Source: Chlorobiota bacterium (GTDB lineage: Bacteria > Bacteroidota > Ignavibacteria > OLB7). From it: 64,000 nucleotides of DNA. Below the pieces are notes generated by a model. That model worked only from the letters and a program-made list of their open reading frames with translations. It made no database searches and was not told where the DNA came from. This document shows, piece by piece, positions 1-38,545 of the stretch. How positions within the stretch are numbered: position 1 is the first letter of the stretch; every line of letters starts with the position of its first letter. The stretch is from the NCBI GenBank assembly GCA_016788565.1, contig JAEUSP010000064.1:289-64288 (forward strand). The letters are read 5' to 3'. The position numbers and the translations under genes were made by a program.

Positions 1-3000
1 CGACAACCAAGCATTTGAGATTCGGGTTGACAATGGAGGCACCGCCACCGAAGGCCGCCGCCGGGTGATGCGGTATGAGCCGAACGTCACCAGCGCGAAC
101 ATCATCGGTGGGTTCAACGGAAACAGCGTGACCAGCGGAGCCGTTGGCGCGGTGATTGCTGGTGGCGGAGGAAATGGGAACACAAACGTAGTGACCGATA
201 ATTATGGAGTAGTAGTTGGCGGGTTCAACAACCGCGCTGGCGATAATGCTGGGCTTACAACCAGTGCAACGCACGCAATAGTGGGGGGTGGCATGAACAA
301 CATTGCATCAGGATTCGCAGCAATGGTTGCTGGCGGTACCGATAACACAGCATCGGGCTTTACTTCGGTTGTGGGTGGTGGCAATTTCAACACTGCATCA
401 ACTGTTTCGGCAACGGTTGGTGGAGGCGCAAGCAACAATGCGTCGGCAATTTTTGGGACGGTTGCTGGCGGAAACAGCAATACCGCATCAGGAAATTATG
501 CAGCGGTAGGAGGAGGCTTAAGCAACATAGCCTCGGCAGAAGGAGCCACGGTAAGTGGTGGTGTGAACAGCGCAGCAGCGGGGATTTCTTCAACGGTAGC
601 TGGTGGCAGTACTAACGAGGCGTTGGGAGATTATGCCACGATCAGCGGTGGTGCAAACCACATAGCAACCGGAAATTCTGCGACGATTGCAGGCGGTCAG
701 GTCAATACGGCATCGGGTCAATACTCTACGGTTGGTGGTGGTCGAGACAACATGGATTCCGGCGATTACTCCACTATTGCTGGTGGTCGCGGCCTAACGT
801 TTACTCCAACTGCCGACCGCAGCTTCGGATTCCATGCCAACAACAGTGGCGGAGGGGTGCCGATGACCATCTCCGCCCCCGATGTCGCCGTCTTTGGCAA
901 CACCGATTTGTGGCTTGCCAACAACGATGGCGCAGCAAGCGAACTCCGTTTCTTTGAAGACTACAGCGGTTCTGGCGCGTTCCCCAACACCGCCAACTAC
1001 ACCGCCTTCAAGGCGCAGGCGCAAACAGGAAATATCACCTACACGCTTCCAGCCTCGGCTGCAGCAAGCAATGGTGATATTCTGACATCAACCACAGGCG
1101 GGGTGATGAGTTGGGCCGACGCAGATTCCATCGTGACCGCCAACGCATGGAGCCTAACCGGCAACAGCATCACCGGAAGCGAATTGCTGGGAACCACCAA
1201 CGCCCAAGACCTGAACATCATTGCTGGCAACACAACCCGCATCACCGTTGATGATGCAACGGGGAATGTTGGCGTTGGCGGAGCGTTCTCAGGAACCGAC
1301 AAACTGAGCGTCACCGGAAATATCAACACCAGCACGCAGTACAACATCGGCGGGGCGCGGGTGCTAAGTGTGCCGGGCACGGCTAACGCATTTGTGGGAG
1401 TGGGAGCAGGCACAGCAAACACCAGCGGCAACAACAATGCCTTTGTTGGCAACAATGCAGGCACAGCAAACACCACTGGTTTCCAGAACTCATCGCTCGG
1501 TTCAGGTGCATTGCAAAGCAACATTGGCGGTAGCACCAACTCCGCAGTTGGATATCAAGCATTGTTCAGTAATAACAGTGGCTCCAGCAACTCGGCACTT
1601 GGGGCAGTTGCCTTGCAAAACAACACTACCGGAGGGAACAACTCTGCGGTTGGTGCCAGTGCATTAGCCAACAACATTGGTGGCAGCAACAACTCAGCAG
1701 TTGGTGCAAACGCATTGCAGGCGAATACTGGCGGCAACAGCAATGCGGCCGTTGGCGCAAACGCATTGCAAGCCAACGTATCTGGGGATGGCAACGCGGC
1801 GTTGGGCGCAAACGCACTGCAAGCAAACACTGCCAGCGACAACACCGCCGTTGGCGCAAGCGCGCTAACCGCAAACACCAGCGGCGTGCGCAACACCGCC
1901 GTTGGGCGCGACGCGCTTGCCGCCACCACCACCGCGGGCGACAACACCGCCGTTGGTTATCACTCACTACAAGCATCAACTGGCGGGTTAAACACAGCGG
2001 TGGGTTCAAACGCATTGGCGGCAAACACCACCGGCACCGATAACGTTGCTGTTGGCGCAGCCGCGCTTGATGCAAACACCACTGGCATCGGCAACATTGC
2101 AATCGGCAAGGATGCGTTGGGGGCAAACATTGGCGGATCGAAGAACACCGCCGTGGGGGATAGCGCGTTGCTACGGAACACCAGCGGCTTCAGCAACACC
2201 GCCGTTGGCGACAGCGCGTTGCTGAACAACACCACCGGCCAGAACAACACCGCCGTTGGCGCGCTAACGCTGGCCAACAATGCTGGCGGGCAATCCAACA
2301 CTGCTGTTGGCGTGGGCGCGTTGCGCGCAAACACCAGCGGCATTGCCAACACCGCTGCCGGCGCAGGGGCATTGGGGGCAAACACAACATCGCTTGGCAA
2401 CACCGCTTTTGGTGTTTTGGCATTGGGAGCCACAACCACCGGGGGGGGCAATACTTCGGTTGGATTCTTTTCGCTGGCAAGCAACAGCACGGGGGCTGGC
2501 AACACCGCCGTTGGGCAAGGGGCGTTGCAATCAACCACCGCAAGCAACAGCACGGCGGTTGGTTTCCACGCATTGAACGCCAACACCACTGGCATTGCCA
2601 ACACAGCCGTTGGCGATAGCGCACTGCTACGCAACACCAGCGGCGTGCGGAACACCGCCATTGGCGATAGCGCGTTAATCAACAGCACCCAGGGCCAGGG
2701 GAACACCGCCGCTGGCGCAATGGCGCTTGCAGCCAACACCACCGGAAGCGGCAACACTGCCATGGGGGTTATGGCGCTTCAGAACGCTGCCAGCAATGTG
2801 AACACTGCGTTCGGTGCGCAAGCCGGTTTGGCCATCACAAGTGGCGGATTCAACACCTTTGTTGGATACCTTGCCAACGCAAGCAGCGGCACGCTAAACA
2901 ACGCAACTGCTATTGGCGCACAAGCGATGGTGGGCCAAAACAACAGCGTGGTGATTGGCTCCATCAACGGAGTAAACGGTGCGGCCGCCGATGCCAGCGT

Positions 3001-6000
3001 TGGCATTGGGACCACCACACCGAACTCAACCAGCCGACTGCACGTTGCTGGCACAGGTGGCACAGCCAACGTTCGGATGGGATCGCTTGGGGGCGCAGCG
3101 GTGGCAACCCCCTACTCACCCGGCGCAAACGATGGCATTGTGGTTTCCGACAACAATGGCGATTTGCTGAAACGTTCCGTTGGCAGCGTCCTGGGGGGAA
3201 GTGCTGTTCTCTACAACGTCAGCGCAACACAAAGCACCGCATCGCCACGCACTAACTACCTCTATGATGTTGCGTACGATGCAGCCGCCCCCGACGCAGC
3301 ATCAGTAGGCGCACGAATCACCTCCAACGCTGGCGCGGCGGGCAACCTGAACGCAACCGCGCTAACGCTGGTGGCAATGCCCACTGGCAGCGGCACAGCA
3401 ACGGCGCTGGAGGCAACCGGAAATATCAACACCAACACCCAATACAACATCGGCACCAACCGTGTGGTAAGCGTCTATGGAACGAACAACGTGTTTGTTG
3501 GCGTGGGCAGCGGCACGGCAAACGATAACTCCGTAACTGGCGGCACAGCCAACACCTTTGTTGGATTCAATGCCGGAACCGCAAACACCACCGGCGACAA
3601 CAACACTGCCGTTGGCAACGGCGCGCTCCACTCCAACACAACAGCGTTTGCCAACACCGCAATCGGCCAAAACGCATTGGGGGGAAACAGCACCGGCACA
3701 CTGAACACCGCTGTTGGCCTGAACTCACTACAATTGAACGTGAGCGGTAGCTCCAACACCGCCGTTGGCGTTGGCGCATTGAACAAAACAACCGTGAATG
3801 GTGGAACCGCTGTTGGGGTGAACACACTGCTGGAAAACACCACCGGCACCGACAACACCGCCGTTGGCGTTAGCGCGCTTCAGAAAAACACAATCGGCTT
3901 CAACAACGTGGCGATGGGGGTGAACACCGTGCAGAAGAACGTAGATGGCAGCAACAACACCGGCATCGGCGCAAGCGCGTTGCTGGAGAACCTCTCGGGA
4001 AGCGGCAACACTGCCGTGGGGACCTCGGCATTGCAAGCCAATTTAGCCAGCAACAACACCGCTGTGGGTTACGGCGCGCTGGATGCAAACACCACCGCAT
4101 TCAACAACACCGCCGTTGGCAAAGATGCCCTTGGCGCAACCAGCATCGGAAACTCGAACACTGCTGTTGGTGCAAGCGCGTTGGCCGTAAACATTGCAAC
4201 GGCAAACACCGCTGTGGGTTCGGCAGCACTGCGGCAGAACACCAACGGCACAAGCAACACCGCCGTTGGCGTGAACTCACTGTTCGTGAATACGGATGGC
4301 ATTAACAACACGGCAATCGGCGTTGGCGCGTTGGGGGGAAACACCTTCGGCAACAACAACACCGCTGTTGGCCTGAACTCCCTTGTTGACAACACCACCG
4401 GAACCGATAACACCGCCGTCGGTGGGGGATCGCTGGGGGATAACACCATCGGCTTCAACAACGTGGCCGTTGGCATCAACGCAATGCAGGACAACATTGA
4501 TGGCGATAACAACGTGGCCGTGGGGGTAAACGCACTGCTGAACAACACCACCGGCGGAGGAAATACCGCGCTTGGCACAGCCGCACTTCAGGCAAATAAT
4601 GCCAGCGATAACACCGCCGTTGGCTACGGCGCATTGGACGCAAACACCACCGGCACAAGCAACACCGCCGTTGGCCGCAACGCGCTTGGCGCAACCAGCA
4701 CTGGCGGATTCAACACTGCGCTTGGCACCAACGCGCTGGCAGCAAACACCGCCAACGATAACACCGCTGTTGGCTACGGCGCATTGAACCTAAACACCAC
4801 TGGCACAAGCAACACCGCCGTTGGCAGCAGCGCGCTTGGCGCAGGCGGCACTGGTGGATTCAACACAGCAGTTGGCGCAAACGCGCTGGCGGCAAACACC
4901 GCCAACGACAACACCGCCGTTGGCTACGGTGCATTGGACGCAAACACCACCGGCACAAGCAACACCGCCGTTGGCCGAAACGCGCTTGGCGCAACCAGCA
5001 CCGGCGGATCCAACACAGCGGTTGGCACCAACGCGCTGGCGGCAAACACCGCCACAGCAAACACCGCCGTTGGCGTGGGGGCATTGGAAGCAAACACCAG
5101 CGGCACAAACAACACAGCGGTTGGGGTGAACAGTCTGTGGGTAAATACCGGCGGCAACAACAACACAGCGATGGGCGTTGGCGCGTTGGGGGGGAACACC
5201 GGCGGCGATAACAACACCGCGATTGGAATAAATGCAATGGTGACCAACAGCACCGGCGACGATAACACCGCCGTTGGCGCAAGCGCGCTAACGGCCAACA
5301 CCATCGGCGTGAACAACGTGGCAATCGGCGTTCACGCAATGAATGCAAACACCGATGGCAACCGAAACACCGTCGTCGGGTCCAGCGCGCTTCTGACCAA
5401 CAGCAACGGCGACGGCAACACCGCTGTTGGCACCGAAGCATTAAAGGTTAGCACCGCCGACAACAACACTGCTGTTGGCGATGCCACCTTGCTGAGCAAC
5501 ACAAGCGGCACGGGGAACACTGCCGTTGGTGCGCGTGCACTGGGTGCAGTTACCACTGCCGGAGCCAACACTGCCGTTGGCCTTGATGCTTTGGCAGCCA
5601 ACACCGCCGCCGGAAACACCGCCGTTGGCGCAGCCGCGCTGGTGACAAACACAACCGGCACGGGGAACACCGCCGTTGGCGTGAATGCCCTGTTTGCAAA
5701 CGTCGTCGGGGCCAACAACACTGCCACTGGCGTGGGATCGTTAGGGGCTACAACGGGGGATAACAACACCGCCACTGGGCACAATGCGTTGGTGGCAAAT
5801 ACATCCGGCGACGGCAACACCGCCGTTGGAACCAGCGCGCTTTCGGCAAACACCACCAGCAGCAACGGGACAGCAGTTGGAGACAACGCACTGCTGCTGG
5901 CAACCGGTGCCGGGAACACTGCCGTTGGTTCGTTTGCTGGTGCGGCCGTTGTGTCGGGATCAAGTAACACCTTTATTGGAGTTGGCAGCAACACCACTGG

Positions 6001-6277
6001 GGGAAGCGCGGCCACATTAACGAACGCCACTGCCGTTGGCGCAAACGCCGTTGTTGGGCAAAGCAACGCAGTGGTGCTTGGCAACAGTGCCGATGTCGGC
6101 ATCGGAACCAGCACCCCACGCGCAGCACTGGATGTGGTCTCCACAGGAGCAATGATTGTTCCAGTAGGGACAACCGCCCAACGCCCCGGAACGCCGGTGC
6201 AGGGGATGATCCGATTCAACACAACCACCGTGAAGTTTGAAGGATACGACGGAACCACGTGGGTGAACCTCAACTAA
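1..6277 (+). CDS. Giant repeat surface protein, truncated at the 5' window edge (>2090 aa). It is built from ~19-20-aa 'NTAVG-x-ALxxNTxGxx' repeats and is YadA-head (Hep_Hag)-like or tail-fibre-like, so probably an adhesin
   Basis: The reading frame of the annotated GTG at 65 stays open back to base 1 with no stop. There are hundreds of periodic NTAVG/NTAIG repeat units. Two super-modules each start with '...TGNINT(S/N)TQYNIG' and end with 'VGIGT(T/S)TP...'. The C-terminus is a non-repeat domain ('GMIRFNTTTVKFEGYDGTTWVNLN'). A strong hairpin terminator follows. Confidence 0.75.
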   Translation, partial: DNQAFEIRVDNGGTATEGRRRVMRYEPNVTSANIIGGFNGNSVTSGAVGAVIAGGGGNGNTNVVTDNYGVVVGGFNNRAGDNAGLTTSATHAIVGGGMNNIASGFAAMVAGGTDNTASGFTSVVGGGNFNTASTVSATVGGGASNNASAIFGTVAGGNSNTASGNYAAVGGGLSNIASAEGATVSGGVNSAAAGISSTVAGGSTNEALGDYATISGGANHIATGNSATIAGGQVNTASGQYSTVGGGRDNMDSGDYSTIAGGRGLTFTPTADRSFGFHANNSGGGVPMTISAPDVAVFGNTDLWLANNDGAASELRFFEDYSGSGAFPNTANYTAFKAQAQTGNITYTLPASAAASNGDILTSTTGGVMSWADADSIVTANAWSLTGNSITGSELLGTTNAQDLNIIAGNTTRITVDDATGNVGVGGAFSGTDKLSVTGNINTSTQYNIGGARVLSVPGTANAFVGVGAGTANTSGNNNAFVGNNAGTANTTGFQNSSLGSGALQSNIGGSTNSAVGYQALFSNNSGSSNSALGAVALQNNTTGGNNSAVGASALANNIGGSNNSAVGANALQANTGGNSNAAVGANALQANVSGDGNAALGANALQANTASDNTAVGASALTANTSGVRNTAVGRDALAATTTAGDNTAVGYHSLQASTGGLNTAVGSNALAANTTGTDNVAVGAAALDANTTGIGNIAIGKDALGANIGGSKNTAVGDSALLRNTSGFSNTAVGDSALLNNTTGQNNTAVGALTLANNAGGQSNTAVGVGALRANTSGIANTAAGAGALGANTTSLGNTAFGVLALGATTTGGGNTSVGFFSLASNSTGAGNTAVGQGALQSTTASNSTAVGFHALNANTTGIANTAVGDSALLRNTSGVRNTAIGDSALINSTQGQGNTAAGAMALAANTTGSGNTAMGVMALQNAASNVNTAFGAQAGLAITSGGFNTFVGYLANASSGTLNNATAIGAQAMVGQNNSVVIGSINGVNGAAADASVGIGTTTPNSTSRLHVAGTGGTANVRMGSLGGAAVATPYSPGANDGIVVSDNNGDLLKRSVGSVLGGSAVLYNVSATQSTASPRTNYLYDVAYDAAAPDAASVGARITSNAGAAGNLNATALTLVAMPTGSGTATALEATGNINTNTQYNIGTNRVVSVYGTNNVFVGVGSGTANDNSVTGGTANTFVGFNAGTANTTGDNNTAVGNGALHSNTTAFANTAIGQNALGGNSTGTLNTAVGLNSLQLNVSGSSNTAVGVGALNKTTVNGGTAVGVNTLLENTTGTDNTAVGVSALQKNTIGFNNVAMGVNTVQKNVDGSNNTGIGASALLENLSGSGNTAVGTSALQANLASNNTAVGYGALDANTTAFNNTAVGKDALGATSIGNSNTAVGASALAVNIATANTAVGSAALRQNTNGTSNTAVGVNSLFVNTDGINNTAIGVGALGGNTFGNNNTAVGLNSLVDNTTGTDNTAVGGGSLGDNTIGFNNVAVGINAMQDNIDGDNNVAVGVNALLNNTTGGGNTALGTAALQANNASDNTAVGYGALDANTTGTSNTAVGRNALGATSTGGFNTALGTNALAANTANDNTAVGYGALNLNTTGTSNTAVGSSALGAGGTGGFNTAVGANALAANTANDNTAVGYGALDANTTGTSNTAVGRNALGATSTGGSNTAVGTNALAANTATANTAVGVGALEANTSGTNNTAVGVNSLWVNTGGNNNTAMGVGALGGNTGGDNNTAIGINAMVTNSTGDDNTAVGASALTANTIGVNNVAIGVHAMNANTDGNRNTVVGSSALLTNSNGDGNTAVGTEALKVSTADNNTAVGDATLLSNTSGTGNTAVGARALGAVTTAGANTAVGLDALAANTAAGNTAVGAAALVTNTTGTGNTAVGVNALFANVVGANNTATGVGSLGATTGDNNTATGHNALVANTSGDGNTAVGTSALSANTTSSNGTAVGDNALLLATGAGNTAVGSFAGAAVVSGSSNTFIGVGSNTTGGSAATLTNATAVGANAVVGQSNAVVLGNSADVGIGTSTPRAALDVVSTGAMIVPVGTTAQRPGTPVQGMIRFNTTTVKFEGYDGTTWVNLN

Positions 6278-6347: not shown

Positions 6348-6384
6348 TGTTGGGAACGCACAGAGTAAGGGCTGATAGATTCGC

Positions 6385-6450
6385 GATTCGGTGGCTCCGC
6401 TTCATACTTCGACGGAGCTCAGCATGAGCGGAGGGCTGGATTCGGAGGTT
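6385..6450 (+). repeat. Dispersed ~55-bp hairpin element (module C: 'ttcggtggctccgCTCATACTTCGACGGaGCTCAGCATGAGCGGag'), copy 1
   Basis: The same element recurs at 6626-6690 (+), 18185-18235 (-), 36105-36172 (-) and 41073-41135 (+) with more than 85% identity. It has internal inverted arms 'ccgctcat' and 'atgagcgg'. Confidence 0.8.
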
Positions 6451-6625: not shown

Positions 6626-6800
6626 CGTTCGGAGGCTCACGCTCATACTTCGACGAAGCTCAGCATGAGCGGAGAGCCGGATTCGTGGTGTAGCGGTCAT
6701 TGGTCATTAGTTATTTCGTGAGTTCCCGGCTCCATCTCCATCTCACTCTTCCCATCTCACTCTTCAATCTTCGCTTCGGCCCCCTCTCCCACCCGCCGAA
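6626..6800 (+). repeat. Composite intergenic element: module C copy 2, then a 'GTCATTGGTCATTAG' heptamer-type run (module A), then a 'CTCACTCTTC' run (module B)
   Basis: Direct sequence match to the modules at 21.69 kb, 36.0-36.3 kb and 40.96-41.27 kb. It lies in the long leader upstream of deaD. Confidence 0.7.
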
Positions 6801-6894
6801 AGTGAGGCAACCAGCTCTATCACATATTTGGGAGAGGGCGGGGGGTGAGGGCAGGCAGCGGCGGCGGCATCCGCTGAAAACTCTATCACTCTCT

Positions 6895-6970
6895 TCTATT
6901 CGACACTCGGCATTCGACATTCGGCATTCCAACCATTTGCCATTTGACATTCGGCATTTGACATTTCTTG
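6895..6970 (+). repeat. Degenerate tandem 'CATT(C/T)GACATTCGGCATT' repeat just upstream of the deaD start
   Basis: The sequence 'ttcgacactcggcattcgacattcggcattcc..ccatttgacattcggcatttgacatttc' shares the 'catttgacattcggc' core with the 94-bp tandem unit at 21.7-22.1 kb. Confidence 0.65.
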
Positions 6971-6995
6971 CGGGGATTCTCCGTAACATGAACCC

Positions 6996-8807
6996 ATGAA
7001 GAACAACCACACGCCAGAAACCGCAACCGAAGCAACCGATTCTTTCGCTGAAATCGGGCTGAGTCTTCCGCTGGTTCAAACGCTTACCGAGCTTGGCTAC
7101 GAAACCCCAACCCCTATCCAGCAGCAATCAATCCCGCTGCTTCTTTCCGGCAAGGACCTGATCGGCCAAGCCCAAACCGGAACCGGAAAAACTGCCGCCT
7201 TCTCACTGCCAATCCTTGACCGCTTGGACCTTAGCCGTGGCGCGTTGCAAGCGTTGATCCTGACCCCAACTCGCGAGCTGGCCATTCAAGTTTCGGAGGC
7301 AATCCACACCTACTCGCGGCATCTTGGCCGCATCCGCGTCACGCCGATTTATGGCGGCGACTCTATCCAGAAACAGATCGTCCGGCTGCGCGGGCCGATG
7401 CACGTTGTGGTTGGCACGCCCGGGCGAATTATGGATCACCTTCGGCGCGGCACACTCACCTTCAGCGCGCTCCGTTTTGTGGTGCTGGACGAAGCCGACG
7501 AGATGCTCCGCATGGGCTTCCTTGACGACGTTGAGTGGATACTTGGCCAAGCCCCAGCCGAGCGGCAAACCGCACTGTTCAGCGCCACCATGCCGCGCGA
7601 AGTCCGCCGCATCAGCGAACGCTACTTGAACCAACCAACATCGGTGGAGATCACCCACAAAACGCTGACGGTCCCTTCGGTGGAGCAGTTCTACTTCCAC
7701 GTTACCGAAAAGCAAAAGCTGAATGTGCTGACCCAACTGTTGGACACCCGCGACAGCGATGCCGAGGCGATGCTGATCTTCACCCGAACAAAAATTGGCG
7801 CGGCAGACCTCACCGAAAAACTTCAAGCACGCGGCTACGAAGCCGAGGCGATGCACGGCGGAATGAGCCAATCGCAGCGGGAAAGTGTGGTGCGCCGGAT
7901 GCGTGCCGGGCAGATTGAAATTGTGGTGGCCACCGACGTTGCCGCGCGTGGGTTGGATATTGAGCAGATTGGGTTGGTGGTGAACTACGACATCCCCGGC
8001 GACCCCGAAGTCTATGTTCACCGGATTGGCCGCACCGGGCGCGCCGGGCGTTCGGGAACCGCGTTCCTGTTCGTCACCCCGCGCGAGGAACGGCTGATGC
8101 GGGAAATCGAACGCTACACCGGGCAGCGGCTTGTTCCCAAAAAAGTCCCTTCCCGCGCCGACGTTGCCGCCCGCCGAATGGCCCTGTTCAAAGAGCGGTT
8201 GCTGAAAGCGTTGGGGGAGGAAGACCTAGACCCGTATCTCACACTGGTGGAGGAACTTGCCGAAGAGAGCGGGCGGGAATTAGCCGAGATTGCCGCCGCC
8301 GCCGCACGGTTAGCGCAAGGAGAAAAACCGATCATGGTTTCGGTTGAGCCAGAACCGCAGAATGTTCCGGGGGCCGAGCGGGGAATGGCACGGTTGTTTA
8401 TCAATGCCGGGCGCAGCGCGGGAATTGGGCCGTCGGATATTGTTGGGGCAATTGCCAACGAGGCTGGGATTCCCGGGCGCGACATTGGGGTGATTGATAT
8501 TTATGATGATTTCACGTTTGTGGAGGTTCCGGCTCACCACCGCAATCAAGTGCTGGAATCGCTGGCGGGTGCCACCATCCGCAACCGCGAAACCAATATC
8601 CGCCCAGCAACCGAGCATGATCTGAAGCCACGTCGAACGTTCAATAACAACGTTGCCGACAAACCAAAAAGGAGAGAGGAGCGGAGAACCGAGGACACTT
8701 CTGGCGGCTGGTACGAGGACATCCCCCGTAAACGGAAAGGAGCAAAACCAATAGCTGCGCACAAAAATGAAAAGCGGAAAAAAGTTGGGGGGAAGAAGCG
8801 GAGATAA
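6996..8807 (+). CDS. deaD: DEAD-box ATP-dependent RNA helicase with a C-terminal DbpA RNA-binding domain and a basic tail (DeaD/CsdA-like)
   Basis: It has the Q-motif, motif I 'AQTGTGKT', 'PTRELA', 'DEAD', 'SAT' and 'HRIGRTGRAG'. The C-terminus carries a DbpA-like domain ('ARLFINAGRSAGIGPSDIVGAIANEAGI') followed by a K/R-rich tail. Confidence 0.9.
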   Translation: MKNNHTPETATEATDSFAEIGLSLPLVQTLTELGYETPTPIQQQSIPLLLSGKDLIGQAQTGTGKTAAFSLPILDRLDLSRGALQALILTPTRELAIQVSEAIHTYSRHLGRIRVTPIYGGDSIQKQIVRLRGPMHVVVGTPGRIMDHLRRGTLTFSALRFVVLDEADEMLRMGFLDDVEWILGQAPAERQTALFSATMPREVRRISERYLNQPTSVEITHKTLTVPSVEQFYFHVTEKQKLNVLTQLLDTRDSDAEAMLIFTRTKIGAADLTEKLQARGYEAEAMHGGMSQSQRESVVRRMRAGQIEIVVATDVAARGLDIEQIGLVVNYDIPGDPEVYVHRIGRTGRAGRSGTAFLFVTPREERLMREIERYTGQRLVPKKVPSRADVAARRMALFKERLLKALGEEDLDPYLTLVEELAEESGRELAEIAAAAARLAQGEKPIMVSVEPEPQNVPGAERGMARLFINAGRSAGIGPSDIVGAIANEAGIPGRDIGVIDIYDDFTFVEVPAHHRNQVLESLAGATIRNRETNIRPATEHDLKPRRTFNNNVADKPKRREERRTEDTSGGWYEDIPRKRKGAKPIAAHKNEKRKKVGGKKRR

Positions 8808-8942
8808 AAAACAACGCCGTATTTGAACGATGCGCTTTGTAAAAGCACCTAAAATAGAGTTGTTCCGGAATAGAGACTCTGACATCACGGAGCCTTGTAG
8901 TTACTGGATTCGCGACTACGGAAAATTTATTCTGGAGCAACT

Positions 8943-9881
8943 CTAATTCACCCAATGTCTTCCTAAAACAACCTTTATTCCGAACTGGTATTGTTTCCAA
9001 TTAGTTTTTGGTATCGTTGAGGTAAAGGGAAAAGAGAGAAAAATTTCTCCCCCACTTATTGCTCCTATATATGCAGTATTCCACCCTAATGAGAGTACAC
9101 AGTTGTAGCGATTTTTGTTCGACTCCTGAAACTCTGTTTCGGTGTCAAATTGAATTGTGTCGGCATTATTGTGATATCTAACCCCATCGTTTTCATTTGC
9201 AATATGAACGAATTGGGATTTCCTGCTTGAAAGCAAATGCTTAGAATCTAATTGAATACCCACATAATAACAAGATGAAATTGATAAAATCTTTGAATTA
9301 AAAAACACTCCATAGACAGGGATAAGAAACCCAATACTTCCTGAGATGAATTTCTCATTTAGATTCAACACATTTACCTCTTTAATTGATCCTATTCTAC
9401 CTGAGTAGAGCAGGTAGGATCGAGTTGTATCAAGTGAGAATAGCATACTTTCTTGATGTTGGAATCCGCCGCCAACAAGAATGATTCCAATTGGAATTTG
9501 CTGCCGAAAAGCAATTCCTACTTCCCAATAGGAAGTTGTTGGAAAATCTGAATTTTTAAATCTTCCGTTAGGTGTAGTAATAAGTTTTTGTTGATCTTGA
9601 TAAGGATTATTTGATGAGAATGCCATTGTAGTTGGGTGAAACGAATTTGCCCGGATAGCATCAGCACAATCAATAACATCACCTCCCGAGAACCAAAACA
9701 GCAATGATTGGGCAGGATCAGGAGCCGGGAACCATCCATGGGAATAATGATCAATAGTATCCGTAAATTGATATTTCTTTGCTTCTTCGTCAATATTTTG
9801 CCATAAAGAATCAATAGACTGCGCATAAGCATCAGATAAAATCACGATGCAGGATAGGAAAAATAATAGATGTATTTGCAT
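8943..9881 (-). CDS. Hypothetical secreted protein encoded in an AT-rich island
   Basis: It has an N-terminal signal peptide (MQIHLLFFLSCIVILSDAYAQ). Local GC is roughly 35%, against about 60% in the flanks. I recognised no conserved domain. Confidence 0.55.
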   Translation of the reverse strand: MQIHLLFFLSCIVILSDAYAQSIDSLWQNIDEEAKKYQFTDTIDHYSHGWFPAPDPAQSLLFWFSGGDVIDCADAIRANSFHPTTMAFSSNNPYQDQQKLITTPNGRFKNSDFPTTSYWEVGIAFRQQIPIGIILVGGGFQHQESMLFSLDTTRSYLLYSGRIGSIKEVNVLNLNEKFISGSIGFLIPVYGVFFNSKILSISSCYYVGIQLDSKHLLSSRKSQFVHIANENDGVRYHNNADTIQFDTETEFQESNKNRYNCVLSLGWNTAYIGAISGGEIFLSFPFTSTIPKTNWKQYQFGIKVVLGRHWVN

Positions 9882-9996
9882 GGTAGCTTATATAAAACTA
9901 TGGCCGTTAGTTAATTAACAGCCATAGTTTGTCTTAAAGTTTATTCAAAAATACTCATATCTAGTTTATATGCAACATACAAGATAGACATTCTGT

Positions 9997-10593
9997 CTAA
10001 ACAACTAATTTGCCGATAGAGTATGTAAATAGGGATGATAGAGCTCCAAATACAACTCCTTGTCCAACTACCTCCCAGCCTGTTAATCCTTCGTCTATAG
10101 CAAGGGCTACTCCAACCGTAACTCCGACAACATCACCAACTGCAACCCCTATAATTGACATATCAGCAGGTGGATAATAATTTGGAGTACTATCACGCCA
10201 GTATTCGCTGCTTCCAAGTGCAACATTGCTAATCACTTTAAAAACAGAATTAACGACATTACTATCAATAGCAGCCGAATCATGGATTGTTTTAATTTGG
10301 GCAGCAAATACTGATAGATTTGTTGTCCCTCGTTCCCAATGATCAGTTGATGAATTATAATAATTATCAAAAACAGAAGCATATTGATATAGGTATGATT
10401 TTTCAGTTGAATTAATCAATCCTTGTGTCAAGAAGCTATCAGCAAATCGTCGGAACTGATTTGGCGATCTTAATTTCTCACCTGAATTTATAGCCGCATT
10501 TAATTGCGAATCCAAAAAATAATTGTGCCAAGCACCAGCTTGATCCAAGCCTTGTTGTGAAAAAAGGCTTCCAGACGGTTTTGGGTAGCTCAT
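9997..10593 (-). CDS. Hypothetical protein with C-terminal glycine-zipper hydrophobic helices. It could be a membrane-active bacteriocin or toxin-like protein; encoded in an AT-rich island
   Basis: There is no signal peptide. The C-terminus reads 'IIGVAVGDVVGVTVGVALA...GWEVVGQGVVFGALSSLF', giving GxxxGxxxGxxxG motifs. It is co-oriented with the gene at 8943..9881. Confidence 0.5.
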   Translation of the reverse strand: MSYPKPSGSLFSQQGLDQAGAWHNYFLDSQLNAAINSGEKLRSPNQFRRFADSFLTQGLINSTEKSYLYQYASVFDNYYNSSTDHWERGTTNLSVFAAQIKTIHDSAAIDSNVVNSVFKVISNVALGSSEYWRDSTPNYYPPADMSIIGVAVGDVVGVTVGVALAIDEGLTGWEVVGQGVVFGALSSLFTYSIGKLVV

Positions 10594-11028
10594 GACGTGT
10601 CTCCTTATGTAGGTCTATTGATGTTTTTCTCAACAATGTTGAGTTGTTTTTTTTCTCTTGCAAATTTTCTCATCTTCTCCATTTTCATTGGAGCAACTAG
10701 AACAATGAGAGAAATATCCCCCTCTTTGTTTTACTCTAGGGGGCTGTGCGGTTTATCTTCCGGTTGTAGTTAGAAGACCCTTTGCTTCATCAAACCCTAC
10801 CCGTGAAAGCTATCGCCCCGTTATAGTATATAACACCACTTTGCTCTGAACGGTCACATTAATTTTCTGTAATGAAGCATCGGGTTGACGATCTGTTATT
10901 GTCAGAATGTTCATTGCTCCGTAAGACGCTTCCCCCCGCTCCGTAAGACCTGGCGGCTACCTTGAATGGAGTTCAATGCAATTCCGCATTGCCAAACCAG
11001 ATATTCAAACCTAGCCGAACAACTAACT

Positions 11029-12300
11029 ATGAACCAGACAACATTACGAAGCACACGCCGCCGCCGTTGGGGGCTTCACCACTTGATCTATCTACTGATG
11101 CTGGCCGTTGCGGCCTTGCACGCCGGGGGCTGCACCCCCACACCAAGCGCGCCGGAAGGAGAAGATTCCTTTGATGTGGTCAACATCGCCGTGTGGGATG
11201 GGGCCTGGAAGGACCCGCAGGTAAAAGCACACAACTTCTTTGGCGGATTGGGCGCGGTTCGGTGCATCCGCCAGTCGCCAGTGAACCCGAATGACCTGTT
11301 GATTGCCGGGAATTTTGGCTTTTTTGAGCATGTTGCAAATAACAATTGGGAGGATGGGAAGGTTAATGGGCTTGTCCTGCTTTCATTACGCGCCGGGTTC
11401 CGTCCGCTTGAGCAAGAGGGGCGCGACCAGAGCACAGCTAATTTCTACACCGCCGAGTTCACCACCGTGAACGTCCCCTACTACTATGCTGGCGGGGTTG
11501 TCACTATGCCGTACCCGGGCAACGATACCGTCACCGGTGCCGGGCGGTTTGCTGATGATGAGCGGTATTGGAGTCAGTTCAATCCCGAATTCCCGCTGGT
11601 TGGCAACGTCTATGCAATGGCGCGGCAGGGGAACACACTCTTCATCGGTGGCGATTTTGCATCCCCCGGGATGATGGAAAACTCCGGCGCGCTTCTCCAG
11701 TATGACCTTGTCTCGCAACAACTGAGCAGCATGGCCACGGGGTATAGTGCTCCGCCTACCTACACGGCTGTTCGGGCACTGGAAGCCGATGGAAACGGGG
11801 TGATAGCTGGAGGGCTGTTTTATCAGATGGGTGGGGTCACGGTCAACAATATCGCCCGCTGGAACGGCAGCAGTTGGGAGGCAATCGGGGATGGAATCCA
11901 GGGGACAGTGTATGATATTATCCGGCACAACGGCACGCTCTACATCGCCGGGATGTTCTACCCCAGCGGCTACGATGGCTACGGAATTTGCGCCCGCTGG
12001 GATGGCAGCACATGGAAGCTGGTTGGCCCCGTGTTCCAGCACGGAAGCGATTACGGAAATGAGGGCTACGCGCTGGCATCGTTCCAGGGGAAGCTGATTA
12101 TTGGGGGGCATTTCAGAAAACTTGGCGGAGTAACCGTGAACAACATTGCGCAGTTATCGCAGTCGGGGAATACGTGGGAACCGCTGGCCGGAGGGGGCAT
12201 TCAAGGCCCTGATGTCGAGGAAGAGCGGGTAAACACTTTGTGCGTTGTCAGCGACCGTTTGTACATCGGTGGGACATTCGATAAGGCGCGTGTTCAGTAG
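11029..12300 (+). CDS. Beta-propeller repeat lipoprotein (delta-60-type repeats)
   Basis: Repeated 'GG.F..(M/L)GGVTVNNIA(R/Q)W(N/D)GS.WE..G.G' units. The likely start is the ATG at 11029, which gives a signal/lipobox-like N-terminus (LMLAVAALHAGGC). The ORF in the track starts at 10966. Confidence 0.55.
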   Translation: MNQTTLRSTRRRRWGLHHLIYLLMLAVAALHAGGCTPTPSAPEGEDSFDVVNIAVWDGAWKDPQVKAHNFFGGLGAVRCIRQSPVNPNDLLIAGNFGFFEHVANNNWEDGKVNGLVLLSLRAGFRPLEQEGRDQSTANFYTAEFTTVNVPYYYAGGVVTMPYPGNDTVTGAGRFADDERYWSQFNPEFPLVGNVYAMARQGNTLFIGGDFASPGMMENSGALLQYDLVSQQLSSMATGYSAPPTYTAVRALEADGNGVIAGGLFYQMGGVTVNNIARWNGSSWEAIGDGIQGTVYDIIRHNGTLYIAGMFYPSGYDGYGICARWDGSTWKLVGPVFQHGSDYGNEGYALASFQGKLIIGGHFRKLGGVTVNNIAQLSQSGNTWEPLAGGGIQGPDVEEERVNTLCVVSDRLYIGGTFDKARVQ

Positions 12301-12367
12301 AAGGTGGTTTGCAATCTGATGCCAGATTTGCGCACGCAGTCGGTATTGGAGTAAGTGTGAGAGAAAT

Positions 12368-12403
12368 ACAACGCCCTGCTGGAAATTTTCAGCAGGGCGT
12401 TGA
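12368..12403. terminator. Hairpin between convergent genes, probably a bidirectional terminator
   Basis: 'aacgccctgctg' pairs with 'cagcagggcgtt' across a 'gaaatttt' loop. The arms nearly match the terminator at 6310-6347. Confidence 0.45.
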
Positions 12404-12424
12404 AATGTACGGCTACCCGTTTCG

Positions 12425-13282
12425 CTACCCCAGTTGCAGTTCCCCGGTCATCATCACTGTGGCATCGCCTTCTAAAAAAACATTCTGGATGGAGTCCTCT
12501 TCTACGGTGAAACCGACGTACAGCGTCGCGCCGCTGGTGGTCGTCACCGCAACCGATTCCGCCAAGCCATAACGTCCGGCCGCAACAATTGCCGAGGCGA
12601 TTGCCCCGGTTCCACACGCTCCAGTTTCCGCCTCGACTCCACGCTCGAACGTCCGAAGCAGAATGCCGGAGCGATCCCCCGTTGCTTGCACAAAGTTTGC
12701 GTTTGCTCCCCCGGGCCGGAACGCTTCGTGGTGCCGCACCGCTTCCCCCCACCGTGCCACATCAAGCTCCGAAAGGTGCGTTGGTTGTTCGCCGGAAAGG
12801 TCCTCCAGAAAAAGGATTGCGTGGGGCGTTCCAACATCAACAAATTGGTAGGGCTGGCTGGTGCCGAACAGAACAAACGATTGATGAAGCCGAACCAACC
12901 CAGGGCTGGGAAACCGAACCAACACGCCACGCTCGGTAAGCCGTGCTTGGTAATTGACCCCAGCATTCGAGAATGTGATAGAGTCAGGATTCTGGACGAA
13001 GCCGTGGTCGGCAGCAAACCGGACTGCGCAGCGTCCGCCATTGCCACACATCATACCGGTTGAGCCATCGCGGTTGAAGTAGAGCATGGTGAAATCAAGG
13101 GGGCTGGAAGGATTGTTGGCGGGGGCAATCGCCATAAAGCCATCGGCACCACCATGGCCTTGTTCTTCCGAGCAGATCAGCGGGGCCAGCAGCCCCAGAT
13201 CGGCATCGGGTGGAAGCTGGCGGCTATCGGCAACGATGAAGGTGTTCCCAGCACCGGACATTTTTTGAAATGGAACGATCAT
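12425..13282 (-). CDS. dapF: Diaminopimelate epimerase
   Basis: N-terminal 'KMSGAGNTFIVAD' and the catalytic 'CGNG.RC' motif. The start was moved to the internal Met (MIVPFQKMSG), by homology with DapF N-termini. Confidence 0.85.
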   Translation of the reverse strand: MIVPFQKMSGAGNTFIVADSRQLPPDADLGLLAPLICSEEQGHGGADGFMAIAPANNPSSPLDFTMLYFNRDGSTGMMCGNGGRCAVRFAADHGFVQNPDSITFSNAGVNYQARLTERGVLVRFPSPGLVRLHQSFVLFGTSQPYQFVDVGTPHAILFLEDLSGEQPTHLSELDVARWGEAVRHHEAFRPGGANANFVQATGDRSGILLRTFERGVEAETGACGTGAIASAIVAAGRYGLAESVAVTTTSGATLYVGFTVEEDSIQNVFLEGDATVMMTGELQLG

Positions 13283-13483
13283 GCCGCAAAATAGCACGAT
13301 TGTGCAGGCGGTGGATTGCCTCACGGATTACCTCACCCGCTCCCTTTCTGCAAGGCTGGTGGCCATATCCTTTTTGCCGTATCTTTTTACTGTGATCCTT
13401 GACCCACGGAACCCGTTCTTGTTATGACTATGCTGTCGCTGTTTTCAACCTTGTTTTCAACCTTCGTCATCGCTACCGATTTC

Positions 13484-14278
13484 ATGCGTTTGTTGGCTGC
13501 TTCCCTCCTCTTCGCAGTGTTGCTGGTCTGCTCTGCCGGGGCGCAAATTGGCGTTGCACAAGATTCTTCCCTGGCCGCCGCCAGCGACCCGTTCGACACC
13601 ATTCTTGTTGATGCCACCTACGTCCCCTGCACCGACACCACCGAGTCGCTGCTGATTTTCACCAGTGGGCGGGGGATTTATGCGCGGGGGAAGGAAGGGG
13701 CACTTTTCTCCATCACAACCGGGCTGGTGGATGACATGAAAGATGCCGTGCAGCAAGCGCAATCGGCAACCGACACGGCGTCGTTGGATAGCTGCACCAC
13801 CGTTGGGGTGATTCTGGCCGGCCCGCGATTTCTGCTGATCAACAACAGTGCCCCCACCAAGCAGACGAAGCCGATTCAGGTGCGATTAGAGCGGTTGCGG
13901 AAGTTTGCGCGGAAAAAATTAGAGAGCGCGATGGAGCGATTATCGGAAACCAGTTCGCAGGAACCGGACACGGCAATCGTGACGTTGCCGGAAGTAGCGA
14001 TGGAGGAACTACGGCGGAACATGAACAACTCACCCATCACCACCGAATGGCGCTGCAAAGGGACAGTGACGGTGCGCGCGTACATTGGCCGTGAAGGTGA
14101 GGCGCGCCGGGCGTTTGTGAGCGATGTGGAGGTGAAAGGGAAATGCGGTGCGTTGCTGGTGACATCGGCACTGCGTGGCGTTTTGCGGACCCGTTTCAAG
14201 CCGGCCACCAAACGGAATGGCCGCCCAACGTCGGCGTGGGTGGATGTTCCGGTGCAATTTCAATACAAGCGGCGGTGA
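13484..14278 (+). CDS. TonB-family energy transducer (C-terminal TonB domain)
   Basis: N-terminal hydrophobic anchor (MRLLAASLLFAVLLVCSAGAQ). The C-terminal ~80 aa resemble TonB_C ('VTVRAYIGREGEA..DVEV...GALLVTSALRGVLRTRFKPA..NGRP...WVDVPVQF'). Confidence 0.55.
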   Translation: MRLLAASLLFAVLLVCSAGAQIGVAQDSSLAAASDPFDTILVDATYVPCTDTTESLLIFTSGRGIYARGKEGALFSITTGLVDDMKDAVQQAQSATDTASLDSCTTVGVILAGPRFLLINNSAPTKQTKPIQVRLERLRKFARKKLESAMERLSETSSQEPDTAIVTLPEVAMEELRRNMNNSPITTEWRCKGTVTVRAYIGREGEARRAFVSDVEVKGKCGALLVTSALRGVLRTRFKPATKRNGRPTSAWVDVPVQFQYKRR

Positions 14279-14389
14279 GCGAAAAAGGCTGCAACGGTGT
14301 GGCGATTGTGCCTGAGTAACAAGCCCTTCCATCCCCAACAAAATCCCTTATCTTCGCGTCAAGTTTTTTTGCAGCAGCAAACACAATCC

Positions 14390-15310
14390 ATGGGCAACCT
14401 TGCGGTGATAGATAACGAGTATGCAGCAACGGTCACGCAGCAATCGCGGACCAGCTTCTACTACTCCTTCTCATTGCTCCCGCGCGACGAGCGGCAGGCG
14501 ATGCACTCGGTGTATGCCTTCTGCCGCTATGCCGATGACATTGTTGATGAAGATGACACCCTGGAATCGGAATCACAGCCCGCCGCGCCGGAGCAACGGA
14601 TTGCCCGCAAACGTGAGCGGCTGAACCGCCTGCGGGCCGAGGTGGAACGATGCTACAACGGCGAATCGCGCCACCCCATCACCCGCTCACTTTCGGCAGT
14701 GGTGAAGCGGTTCAACATCCCCAAACAGTACTTCCTGACGTTGCTGGATGGAGTGGAGATGGACTTGGTGAAAAACCGCTATGAGACGTTCGAGGAATTG
14801 CGGGAATACTGCTACAGCGTAGCATCGGTGGTGGGGCTTATTTGCATCGAGATTTTTGGATATAAGTACGAAGAGACCAAGGAGTATGCCGTCAATCTTG
14901 GAATTGCCTTGCAGCTGACGAACATCCTGCGCGACGTGAAATCAGATGCCGAACGTGGACGCATCTACTTGCCGATGGAGGACCTTCGGGCGTTCGGCTA
15001 CACCGAGCGGGACGTTCTGGAGAACAGCTACAACTTGCCTTTCATCGAACTGATGCGATTCCAGACCCGCCGCGCCCGCCAGTACTACGGGCGCGCCCGC
15101 GCCGCGCTTCGCCCCGACGAACGCCGCACGATGTTCGCTGCCGAGATTATGGACGCTATCTACTACCGAATGCTGGAAAAAATTGAGTTGAACGAGTTCG
15201 ACATCTATCGCCGTAAAATCTCGGTCCGCACGCCGCACAAATTGTGGATTGCGTTCAAGTTGTGGCTTGTCACCCGTGTGCTCACCAACCGGAAATCAGC
15301 GGCAAAGTAG
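14390..15310 (+). CDS. crtB: Phytoene/squalene synthase family (CrtB-like)
   Basis: The first Asp-rich motif is 'YAFCRYADDIVDE'. The second is 'LQLTNILRDVKSDAERGRIYLP'. This is the trans-isoprenyl diphosphate synthase head-to-head fold. Confidence 0.8.
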   Translation: MGNLAVIDNEYAATVTQQSRTSFYYSFSLLPRDERQAMHSVYAFCRYADDIVDEDDTLESESQPAAPEQRIARKRERLNRLRAEVERCYNGESRHPITRSLSAVVKRFNIPKQYFLTLLDGVEMDLVKNRYETFEELREYCYSVASVVGLICIEIFGYKYEETKEYAVNLGIALQLTNILRDVKSDAERGRIYLPMEDLRAFGYTERDVLENSYNLPFIELMRFQTRRARQYYGRARAALRPDERRTMFAAEIMDAIYYRMLEKIELNEFDIYRRKISVRTPHKLWIAFKLWLVTRVLTNRKSAAK

Positions 15311-15404
15311 GAAGTGGCTTCTGCTTCGGTGCTCCTGGCCAGCTTCCCGGTGAGTTGCGTGATTCTCTGTTCCTCCCCTAACTCTATCATCAACCGTTGG
15401 TCGC

Positions 15405-16775
15405 TTGAAATCCAACCGTAACCAGATTCTGCTCATTCTTGGCTGTACGCTTCTGGCGTATGTACTGATTGCGTTTGTGCTGTTCGCCGATATGCCGTTG
15501 CGCTCGGATGCCGCCGGTTACTCCAAACAAGCCATTGCAATCGCCGCCACATTCCCCGGCAACGAAGCCTACTACTGGCCGCCGGCGATGCCGTACATTT
15601 TGGCGGCGGCCTACAATCTGTTTGGGGAGAGCCTTGCGGTTGCAAGAGGGGTCAATATCCTTCTGTGCGTGCTGATGGTTTATGCTGCAATACTGCTAAC
15701 GACCGAAGCCACCAACGATCCACAAAAAGGGAGAATTGCGGGATGGATGGCCGCACTCTATCCAGCATCATTCCTGATGGCGGGACAAACATACAGCCAG
15801 CATCTAACCGCTGCCGGATTGATGCTAACCGGATACTGGTTGCTGATTGCCTACCGGCGCGGAAACGTAGGGTGGTATCTGCTGGCCGGAATCGCGTTGG
15901 GGGGAACGGCGTTGGCGCGGTCGTCGGCCATGAGCTTGCTTCCCGCGCTGGGGATATTGGCTGGCGTTGCCTACTGGCGGCTTCGGCGGAATCCTGAACA
16001 AGCTGTGGTTGCCACACGCAAATCACTGATCCCCGGCTCGCTTCTGTTTCTGGTTGGCACTGCGTTGCTTGTGATTCCGGTGATGCTCCATAACGTGAAG
16101 CATGGTGCTGGCTGGAATATCTCAACCAAGGACGAAAGCAACGTGCTGGTGGGAAATTGCAAGTACACCCACCATTATAAAACCAACCAGTTAGCCGTCC
16201 GCGATTTTTCTTTGATGGAGCCGGAAGTCCGCGAGTACCTGATACGAATGCGGGACCTTCCGAACGCACGAAGCGCGATGATGAAGGAGGCGGTGGAGTA
16301 TGTGATTGCCCACCCGGGCATCACCGCATGGCGGACGCTAAGCCGAATCCGTGCCTTCTGGGGATTCGATTACATGCTTGCGCGCGAGACCCAAAACCAG
16401 TATCAGTTATCGAACCTCCAGATGCTGATTCCGCTATCGCTGGAAGCTGGCGGGTATGTGCTGATGATGATCGGGGTGCTGCTCGGCTTGTTCTTTGCTC
16501 GCCGCCTGCTATCGCCCCCGGCAACCACACTGCTGCTGGTGATGGCCATTGGCTACCAAGTCCCCTACATGTTGGTGTATGCTGCGGGAACCTACCATTT
16601 CCCTGCGGTGTTTCTGCTGCTCCCGATTTCCTGCGTGGGTTGGATTTGGACCTTGCAGCAGTGGCGGCAACGCTGGCCAGTGATTGCCCGGCGACGGTGG
16701 TTCTGGGCTGCGGTCGCGCTGTTCGTGCTGGTGCAAATTGAGTATGGCTACTGGGCGATTACCATGCAGCAGTAG
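15405..16775 (+). CDS. Polytopic membrane glycosyltransferase, GT39/ArnT/PMT-like
   Basis: Ten or more predicted TM helices, a periplasmic-loop-rich architecture and an N-terminal 'D..G' region typical of 4-amino-4-deoxy-L-arabinose/mannosyltransferase-like enzymes. Confidence 0.5.
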   Translation: MKSNRNQILLILGCTLLAYVLIAFVLFADMPLRSDAAGYSKQAIAIAATFPGNEAYYWPPAMPYILAAAYNLFGESLAVARGVNILLCVLMVYAAILLTTEATNDPQKGRIAGWMAALYPASFLMAGQTYSQHLTAAGLMLTGYWLLIAYRRGNVGWYLLAGIALGGTALARSSAMSLLPALGILAGVAYWRLRRNPEQAVVATRKSLIPGSLLFLVGTALLVIPVMLHNVKHGAGWNISTKDESNVLVGNCKYTHHYKTNQLAVRDFSLMEPEVREYLIRMRDLPNARSAMMKEAVEYVIAHPGITAWRTLSRIRAFWGFDYMLARETQNQYQLSNLQMLIPLSLEAGGYVLMMIGVLLGLFFARRLLSPPATTLLLVMAIGYQVPYMLVYAAGTYHFPAVFLLLPISCVGWIWTLQQWRQRWPVIARRRWFWAAVALFVLVQIEYGYWAITMQQ

Positions 16776-35999: not shown

Positions 36000-36295
36000 G
36001 CCAAATTTCCGCACGGAAGAGTGAAGAGTGAGGTGTGAAGAGTGAAATAAAGCCAAAGCGGGAAACCCACCAATGACTAACGACTAATGACTAATGACCA
36101 CCGCGAACGCAGCCCTCCGCTCATGCTGAGCCCCGTCGAAGTATGAGCGGAGCCACCGAACCGAGCCGATTTCACTACCTGCCCTCTCCGAAGCAAAGAG
36201 TGAAGAGTGAGGTGTGAAGAGTGAAATAAAGCCAAAGCGGGAAACCCCCCAATGACTAATGACTAACGACCAATGACCGTCCCCCAACTGTGGCA
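36000..36295. repeat. Composite intergenic element in a divergent promoter region: two direct copies of [module B + 'aaataaagccaaagcgggaaaccc' + module A heptamer run] flanking module C copy 4
   Basis: 'gaagagtgaagagtgaggtgtgaagagtgaaataaagccaaagcgggaaaccc..aatgactaa(c/t)gactaa...' occurs at 36018-36098 and at 36196-36290. Module C lies at 36105-36172. Confidence 0.8.
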
Positions 36296-38522: not shown

Positions 38523-38545
38523 AACGTAGGATTTTGCATTCTACG

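Follow-up and report, generated by a model that had tools for sequence, protein, structure and literature searches.

An AT-rich, strain-variable islet in an uncultured Chlorobiota/Kapaibacteriota species encodes a rare glycine-zipper protein and a divergent outer-membrane barrel

The extended glycine zipper has been defined as (G/A/S)xxxGxxxG (PMC12744356), and the toxins with such a motif that we used for comparison are the LXG proteins EsxX, TelE and TspA of the type VIIb secretion system (T7SSb), Tse4 and the C-terminal part of Tse5 (Tse5-CT) of type VI secretion systems (T6SS), and the ionophoric C-terminal CdiA toxins (CdiA-CT) of contact-dependent inhibition (CDI). At the outer membrane, the secretion system of type IX (T9SS) forms PorE-PorP-cargo complexes whose cargo carries a C-terminal domain (CTD) of type B (PMC9143113). 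Here we describe an islet of two genes, A and B, that invites comparison with both groups; it lies in a 64,000-nucleotide (nt) stretch, hereafter the window, of a metagenome-assembled genome (MAG) deposited as Chlorobiota bacterium (assembly GCA_016788565.1, contig JAEUSP010000064.1). Three statements about it are firm: firstly, the islet is foreign and strain-variable; secondly, protein A is rare and Sec-independent and ends in a glycine-zipper hairpin; thirdly, B is an extra, divergent outer-membrane barrel. What we say below about the functions of A and B is offered as hypotheses.

The islet spans window positions 8807-10902 (2,096 nt), as delimited by blastn against an empty-site allele and by the GC profile. 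Among contigs encoding exactly the window's DeaD protein, many carry the islet and one (L053) does not. This contig matches the window up to the left junction (L053 136-2224 and window 6718-8806, 99.57% identity by blastn) and again from the right junction onwards (L053 2355-8225 and window 10903-16774, 99.75% identity), while between the junctions, at 8806/8807 and 10902/10903, it has 130 unrelated nt in place of exactly the 2,096-nt islet. Its DeaD protein is identical to that of the window. The islet is therefore a presence/absence polymorphism in one species-level population. The 130 nt of L053 hold a textbook hairpin-plus-T7 terminator for deaD, and comparison of the two alleles argues for insertion rather than deletion, because the terminator of the empty allele is intact and the composition of the islet is unameliorated. 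In one lineage of the species, the islet would thus have replaced the 130-nt, DeaD-proximal intergenic spacer.

The base composition of the islet sets it apart from its surroundings (GC content 36-40% as compared to ~57%). The profile gave 0.356 at 9001-10000 and 0.403 at 10001-11000 against 0.55-0.61 on either side, and at 100-nt resolution the trough ran from ~8800 to ~10900 with sharp borders. GC at third codon positions (GC3) is 0.24 in gene A and 0.30 in gene B, as compared to 0.62-0.69 in the genes for DeaD, a 444-residue protein, DapF and a TonB-like protein, and the tetranucleotide correlation between the islet and the host core is r = -0.05. An initial annotation of this DNA had described an AT-rich island of about 2 kb among GC-rich genes and had taken it for a recent horizontal acquisition; the GC profile and codon usage bear out the first point, and the unameliorated codons, the tetranucleotide profile and an empty-site allele that begins and ends almost exactly where that island had been placed bear out the second. 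Together, these data strongly support the view that the islet is recently acquired, foreign, strain-variable DNA in an uncultured Chlorobiota/Kapaibacteriota species.

In keeping with this, the islet is 100% identical across 12 distinct metagenome contigs from different samples (17 loci were fetched, several of them being one contig twice), and both open reading frames (ORFs) are intact in each copy that is covered whole. One apparent variant (L006) proved to be a gene-calling difference only, the contig being 99.99% identical to the window. No tRNA is present in the 64-kb window, so a tRNA-targeted island was rejected; no integrase or transposase was found among the window ORFs scanned, and the islet junctions have neither a target-site duplication nor flanking direct repeats nor microhomology. 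A prophage or plasmid origin found no support, and a metagenome scan using the 444-residue flanking protein gave no match. Close beyond the right junction, the 12 nt GCTCCGTAAGAC are exactly repeated in direct orientation, at 10916-10927 and 10938-10949 (22 nt apart); the empty-site allele has this repeat too, with a mismatch in one copy, and the repeat is therefore part of the flank. Over the first ~16 nt to the right of the junction, the alleles differ at 4 positions.

The two co-oriented genes fill the islet. Gene A (9997-10593, minus strand; 198 residues, ATG start; MBL7987794.1, JNJ94_07020) has a Shine-Dalgarno-like AAGGAG at 10601-10606 (minus strand), which reads 7 nt upstream of its ATG. 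Gene B follows 115 nt downstream (8943-9881, minus strand; 312 residues; MBL7987793.1, JNJ94_07015) and is, as first annotated, a signal-peptide ORF directly behind gene A on the same strand. On the left, the flanking gene encodes a DeaD-type RNA helicase and converges with gene B; on the right, a gene for a 444-residue beta-propeller protein diverges from gene A and is followed by that for DapF.

Such GC troughs are not rare in the window: two further ones, spanning 38.45-40.0 kb and 46.2-49.3 kb, carry orphan secreted proteins and an Mrr-type nuclease rather than normal core genes. The first (38450-40000; GC 0.37-0.38, GC3 0.33-0.36) is a second AT-rich islet with two tandem, apparently similar signal-peptide orphans of 244 and 237 residues on the minus strand, both without a Pfam match. 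It resembles the islet studied here in tetranucleotide profile (r = 0.80), and a TAnnTTTG element lies 44 nt upstream of its first gene. The second (46167-49274; GC 0.45-0.49) encodes a 637-residue secreted orphan and a 384-residue protein with a C-terminal Mrr_cat restriction-endonuclease domain (E = 5e-28) and a helical N-terminal region with a sub-threshold HEAT-repeat match, possibly a defence gene.

Protein A has no signal peptide and is composed of a conserved N-terminal domain (residues 1-145), which is probably helical, and a C-terminal glycine-zipper hairpin (residues 146-198, encoded at 10000-10158 on the minus strand and delimited by hydropathy and motif counts). The tail consists of two hydrophobic helices, SIIGVAVGDVVGVTVGVALAI and VVGQGVVFGALSSLFTYSIGKLVV, with the loop DEGLTGWE between them. 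Helix 1 reads GxxxGxxxGxxxGxxxA, with G149, G153, G157, G161 and A165 at x3 spacing, and G179-x3-G183 lies further on; the last 53 residues contain four GxxxG motifs (P = 0.04 against shuffles of that segment), and the maximum Kyte-Doolittle 19-residue window of the tail is 2.2. The initial annotation was thus correct on the missing signal peptide and on the C-terminal hydrophobic hairpin with its extended glycine zipper, and no homology of A to a housekeeping membrane protein was found.

The family to which A belongs is extremely small. A word-indexed search of 5.8 billion clusters returned only A itself (hypothetical protein JNJ94_07020 [Chlorobi bacterium]), and exhaustive phmmer against 1.84 billion representative proteins listed 7 other proteins, among them 2 full-length relatives of 39% identity (P0048 and P0049) and 4 fragments or pseudogene; a 761-residue repeat protein among the matches is spurious. 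Members share the start M-x-[YF]-P-K-P, the motifs GAWHNY, INSTE-SYL, W-RG, IHD-A and SN[IV]ALGS-YW over ~145 residues and, after this N-terminal domain, a Gly-rich hydrophobic tail of 53-54 residues. Identity is 39-51% in the N-terminal domain as compared to 24-34% in the zipper region. The length and glycine register of the tail are kept, which indicates one diverging domain rather than swapped modules: the register V-G-D-V-x-G is shared by P0048, P0049 and P0050, and Asp154 in helix 1 is Asp in all four members with a tail. Conservation of the N-terminus and of many other residues, at 39% identity, extends over very different GC backgrounds, and the relatives lie in patches of lower GC than their own contig surroundings. 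In one of them (L067, 414-913) the gene is broken by a frameshift or deletion, with the MDFPRPSS...GAWHNY part in one frame, the C-terminal part in another and ~60 residues gone, as expected for a dispensable accessory gene.

Searches beyond the family were negative. Scans of A and all its relatives against Pfam, NCBIfam, PHROGs and PADLOC gave nothing above noise, a profile search of the PDB with the family and tblastn of A against phage and plasmid records gave no match, and scans of JGI metagenomes and IMG/VR for the A locus found none. One relative has a sub-threshold match (E = 0.004) to the Pfam Gly-zipper families, to which the window's A has no match, and the weak matches of one Gly-rich relative to the PHROG families 'tail lysin' and 'tape measure' look like low complexity and were set aside. 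The only two non-identical variants of A (P0054 and P0055), each from a single short ENA contig, differ by one substitution each, D167Y and A184D; both fall in the zipper hairpin, the latter puts a charge in helix 2, and both could be sequencing errors or inactivating changes. Antisense to the 5' region of gene A, a GTG-start ORF of 58 residues (10597-10773, plus strand) would encode a very hydrophobic peptide (VGLLMFFSTMLSCFFSLANFLIFSIFIGA...). It is worth noting because ionophore toxins typically come with immunity proteins that are small and hydrophobic; it is not conserved upstream of the A relatives in L017 and L018 and is probably an artefact of T-rich DNA.

Protein B is an integral outer-membrane beta-barrel. 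It begins with a cleavable Sec signal (MQIHLLFFLSCIVILSDAYA|Q; signal peptide residues 1-20, cleavage AYA|Q), and its ~290 mature residues have a confident predicted fold, a closed antiparallel barrel of amphipathic strands. This, and the usual location of its family in a different conserved three-gene block at normal GC, speak against the 'secreted partner' of the initial annotation. Neither B nor a regular family member matched any Pfam or NCBIfam model, including the Pfam OMP families and PorP/SprF; B had no PHROGs or PADLOC match above noise, and an IMG/VR scan for the B locus found none. Family-specific motifs are YSHGWFP, DTTRSYL and IPVYGVF. By sequence, no member of this Kapaibacteriota-specific family diverges more than B: its mean identity to the others is 34%, as compared to 53% among them, none of those falling below 42%. 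It keeps 33 of the 33 family-invariant residues, and B probably retains the family activity because all of them are kept.

Members of this family usually stand third in a conserved block found at at least 25 loci, at normal GC and among housekeeping genes. The first gene encodes ~500 residues that comprise a VWA domain and, at the C-terminus, an OmpA-like peptidoglycan-binding part; the second, ~250 residues with a signal peptide, one member scoring 26.9 bits, above the NCBIfam cut-off of 23, for TIGR04183, the T9SS type A sorting domain; the third, the outer-membrane barrel of ~320-400 residues. Neither of the two usual partners was found near the window's B. A regular member of the family, JNJ94_09045 of the P0013 cluster, is encoded by the same MAG, and B is therefore a second, xenologous copy. 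Contigs of this cluster contain the block in full, occur together with the islet organism in three samples, have tetranucleotide correlations of r = 0.97-0.98 with the window and have a ~60-nt interspersed repeat in common with it. This uncharacterised three-gene block (L011, L012, L014, L016, L019-L031, L035-L038, L046, L048, L050 and L061-L066) recurs in MAGs of Kapaibacteriota, Chlorobiota and Ignavibacteriae, and at several of its loci (L011, L014, L016) the neighbouring genes are aspS/asnS on one side and gltX on the other. MAGs with a Kapaibacteriota-type block that are labelled Armatimonadota, 'uncultured Alphaproteobacteria' or Desulfobulbaceae (L021, L026, L029, L035, L048) probably reflect mis-binned or mislabelled contigs; the tetranucleotide profile of L021 nearly equals that of the window (r = 0.96).

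We rejected the idea of a conserved A-B cassette. No A-like gene adjoins any of ~40 other B-family loci, and the proteins encoded downstream of A relatives are homologous neither to B nor to each other. All three full-length members of the A family are nevertheless followed by a gene for a signal-peptide protein on the same strand: besides B, these are a beta-rich protein of at least 200 residues in L018 and, in L017, an ORF in overlap with the stop codon (TGATG), which starts MRFGLVVLAYLVVPVCVTRAC... and is cut off by the end of the contig. The three downstream proteins are mutually unrelated, a pattern that, by analogy, is the one seen for toxin/immunity pairs. At the pseudogene locus (L067), the upstream neighbour has a barrel-like C-terminus (...GFGGRFNWR), and the downstream neighbour has, by eye, an SRPBCC/AHSA1-type look.

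Hairpins bound gene B on both sides. At its 3' end, where the initial annotation had noted a weak inverted repeat, the repeat is real and is stronger than that: its 21-nt arms (8852-8872 and 8928-8948) are 86% complementary, are separated by a 55-nt spacer and overlap the gene B stop codon (8852-8948 overall). On the plus strand it folds into a stem of ~20 bp (-46.5 kcal/mol, z = -5.5) and on the minus strand it reaches -31.7 kcal/mol (z = -2.5). It is probably a bidirectional terminator between the convergent genes for B and DeaD, brought in with the islet and replacing the DeaD terminator of the empty allele. We rejected an integron cassette (attC) reading of this repeat: by eye, its arms have no GTTRRRY/RYYYAAC core sites, there is one repeat only, and a Pfam scan of the large ORFs (several smaller ones lay outside it) turned up no integrase.

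Between the genes, a near-perfect palindrome (9895-9930, minus strand) forms a 15-bp RNA stem (-20.4 kcal/mol, z = -6.6), after which comes UUUUAUAU, and ends 13 nt before the gene B ATG; it is a candidate terminator or attenuator after gene A and/or a 5' untranslated element of gene B. Beyond it, at 9946-9953 (minus strand) and 65 nt upstream of the same ATG, TATTTTTG matches TAnnTTTG, the -7 element of the Fibrobacteres-Chlorobi-Bacteroidetes (FCB) type, and is a candidate promoter for gene B alone, to which we give low weight: this element is not enriched in the window (13 found, 23.5 expected), although several copies lie just upstream of gene starts. The hairpin and the element together make separate or attenuated transcription of gene B possible.

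How might the two proteins act? The reading that we favour, tentatively and by analogy with known effectors, is that A may be a membrane-permeabilising glycine-zipper effector with an envelope partner. Its N-terminal domain (~145 residues, probably helical) would stay on the cis side of the membrane while the two-helix zipper hairpin inserts into the lipid bilayer; A would then oligomerise by helix-helix packing via its GxxxG faces into an ion-leaking assembly, and so would work like the glycine-zipper effectors that depolarise membranes. B, from the same foreign fragment, would act in the envelope as the partner of A, either by conferring protection or immunity or as a component for docking or at the surface. 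The parts of this proposal differ in weight: membrane insertion of A is likely, a pore-forming or toxic activity is possible but falls short of an even chance, and a functional coupling of A and B is somewhat doubtful. Judged from its sequence, a toxin role for A is plausible.

Several observations weigh against this proposal. The toxin or bacteriocin of the initial annotation was drawn from motif and architecture only, and it was not substantiated: by sequence, A has no similarity to toxin, bacteriocin, immunity, defence or phage families, A has no recognisable leader peptide, Sec signal or T6SS, T7SS or CDI delivery domain, and no secretion machinery or ATP-binding cassette (ABC) exporter was found among the large ORFs of the window. 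Harmless membrane proteins have glycine zippers too, and the single-sequence AlphaFold2 model of A is unreliable (pLDDT 38.6). As for the partner, the characterised immunity proteins of glycine-zipper depolarising toxins are all small and located in the inner membrane or cytoplasm, never outer-membrane barrels, and the B family has a usual partner other than A. The association of the A family with downstream signal-peptide genes comes from three loci only, and A and B may not form one operon, given the strong hairpin and possible separate promoter between them. A more far-reaching version of the proposal, in which the A family is a new class of Sec-independent glycine-zipper pore-forming effectors confined to Kapaibacteriota and the wider FCB group, its partner being an outer-membrane barrel (a captured, diverged paralogue of the barrel of a T9SS-associated surface complex) that confers immunity or delivery at the outer membrane, e.g. 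by receptor mimicry or exclusion, strikes us as highly improbable.

The islet could instead be a non-toxic module of envelope or surface variation, in which B is an alternative barrel that replaces or acts as a decoy for the native copy and changes the surface or its recognition by phages or predators, and A is a harmless inner-membrane protein with a tail anchor, serving in stress or in the organisation of the membrane. We consider this rather unlikely. B has kept the invariant residues of its family and yet is highly diverged, a native copy co-exists in the same MAG, and the normal context of the family is a surface-complex-like block (OmpA-type peptidoglycan binder, T9SS type A cargo and barrel), all of which fit such a module; so do the AT-rich islet at 38.5-40 kb, which likewise encodes only secreted orphans, and the frequency of zippers in non-toxic membrane proteins, the Pfam Gly-zipper families being mostly lipoproteins. 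It leaves unexplained, however, why the A family is rare, patchy, foreign in composition and decaying and why its members recur beside unrelated signal-peptide proteins, and B is here without the two partners that its family always has. The same recurrence is left unexplained if A is a self-acting effector of abortive infection or defence, with a cytoplasmic N-terminal sensor and, at the C-terminus, a membrane-disrupting two-transmembrane (2-TM) module by which the infected cell is killed or arrested, and B is an unrelated passenger or a surface variant with an effect on phage adsorption. Effectors with two transmembrane helices, C- or N-terminal, are common in defence systems such as CBASS, Pycsar and Thoeris. 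The N-terminal domain of A would be cytoplasmic by default because A has no secretion signal, which suits such an effector, as do a strain-variable spot between core genes, the Mrr-type nuclease with HEAT repeats in another AT-rich islet of the window, and the hairpin and possible separate promoter upstream of gene B. Nonetheless, no member of the A family matches PADLOC, no enzymatic or nucleotide-binding sensor domain was detected in A and no partner signalling gene is present, and we regard this explanation as unlikely.

Alternatively, A and B could be functionless hitch-hikers, left over from a larger mobile element or prophage and on the way to decay. In line with this, mobility genes, a tRNA and a target-site duplication are all absent from the islet, a pseudogene is among the A relatives and the A family is extremely rare. 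Against it, both ORFs are intact in every copy covered whole, the N-terminus and many residues of A are conserved (39% identity) in relatives of very different GC background, B has a confident fold with its invariant positions retained, the Shine-Dalgarno site and terminator-like hairpins are sensibly placed, and no phage or plasmid relatives were found; this makes mere carriage quite improbable.

Elsewhere in the window, an intergenic repeat of ~60-70 nt recurs in copies of 84-97% identity (~6382-6446, 36016-36077, 36104-36256, 41075-41134 and 41190-41257) and is also found at L062 2314-2379 and L053 127-197; it looks like a repetitive extragenic palindromic (REP) or miniature inverted-repeat transposable (MITE) element because it is scattered both in the window and on another contig of the same species. 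The ORFs at 65-6277 (plus strand, 2,070 residues) and 24628-29496 (minus strand, 1,622 residues) have no Pfam match at E <= 1e-5, the former being called as a gene of 2,157-2,296 residues adjoining deaD in population contigs.

If A is a pore-forming effector, Kapaibacteriota, an uncultured lineage close to Chlorobi, would have in this islet their first described module of antagonism or abortive infection, with a delivery-independent architecture and an unusual outer-membrane partner. The ecological weight of the A family is probably small, since the family is so rare. Independently of function, the locus is a clean natural case in which, inside a single species, a two-gene islet has taken the place of an intergenic terminator, both alleles being available, and it draws attention to a phylum-wide block of VWA-OmpA protein, T9SS cargo and barrel that is akin to PorE-PorP-cargo complexes.

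The comparison with known systems yields both likenesses and differences. The 2-TM glycine-zipper lipoproteins (SlyB/PCP, Rick_17kDa_Anti and Gly-zipper_Omp/YMGG families) are associated with outer-membrane proteins and have a two-helix zipper hairpin, as A does; unlike them, A has no signal peptide or lipobox and for this reason cannot take the Lol route, and the matches of one A relative to these families are sub-threshold and composition-driven. B is larger than the small monomeric outer-membrane barrels (the N-terminal domains of OmpA and OprF, OmpX, OmpW, NspA, PagL and the Legionella Dot/Icm-associated porins), with identity of only 4-14% and a TM-score of at most 0.55. It likewise shows little resemblance to FadL (Foldseek probability at most 0.25), a 14-stranded FadL-like barrel being the expectation for PorP/SprF. 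Unlike in PorE-PorP complexes, the B family matches no PorP/SprF model of Pfam or NCBIfam, the cargo of its block has a type A CTD (TIGR04183) rather than type B, the first gene encodes a VWA-OmpA protein rather than a TPR/propeller PorE, and the window's B has no CTD neighbour or other partner adjacent; like PorE-PorP-PG1035, however, the block brings together the same three roles, an OmpA-like peptidoglycan binder, a CTD cargo and a barrel. As compared to the glycine-zipper toxins, A lacks sequence homology and any LXG, MIX, PAAR, Rhs, VENN or GG-leader element (Pfam and NCBIfam scans of A and its relatives), its host is a diderm of the FCB group without a T7SS and with no T6SS or CDI genes in the window, and its neighbour is a 312-residue outer-membrane barrel rather than a small inner-membrane or cytoplasmic immunity protein. 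What A has in common with these toxins is a C-terminal hydrophobic segment that satisfies (G/A/S)xxxGxxxG, a probably alpha-helical, non-toxic N-terminal domain ahead of the zipper, as in EsxX, TelE and TspA, and a location in accessory, strain-variable DNA with the gene for an envelope-targeted protein directly downstream.

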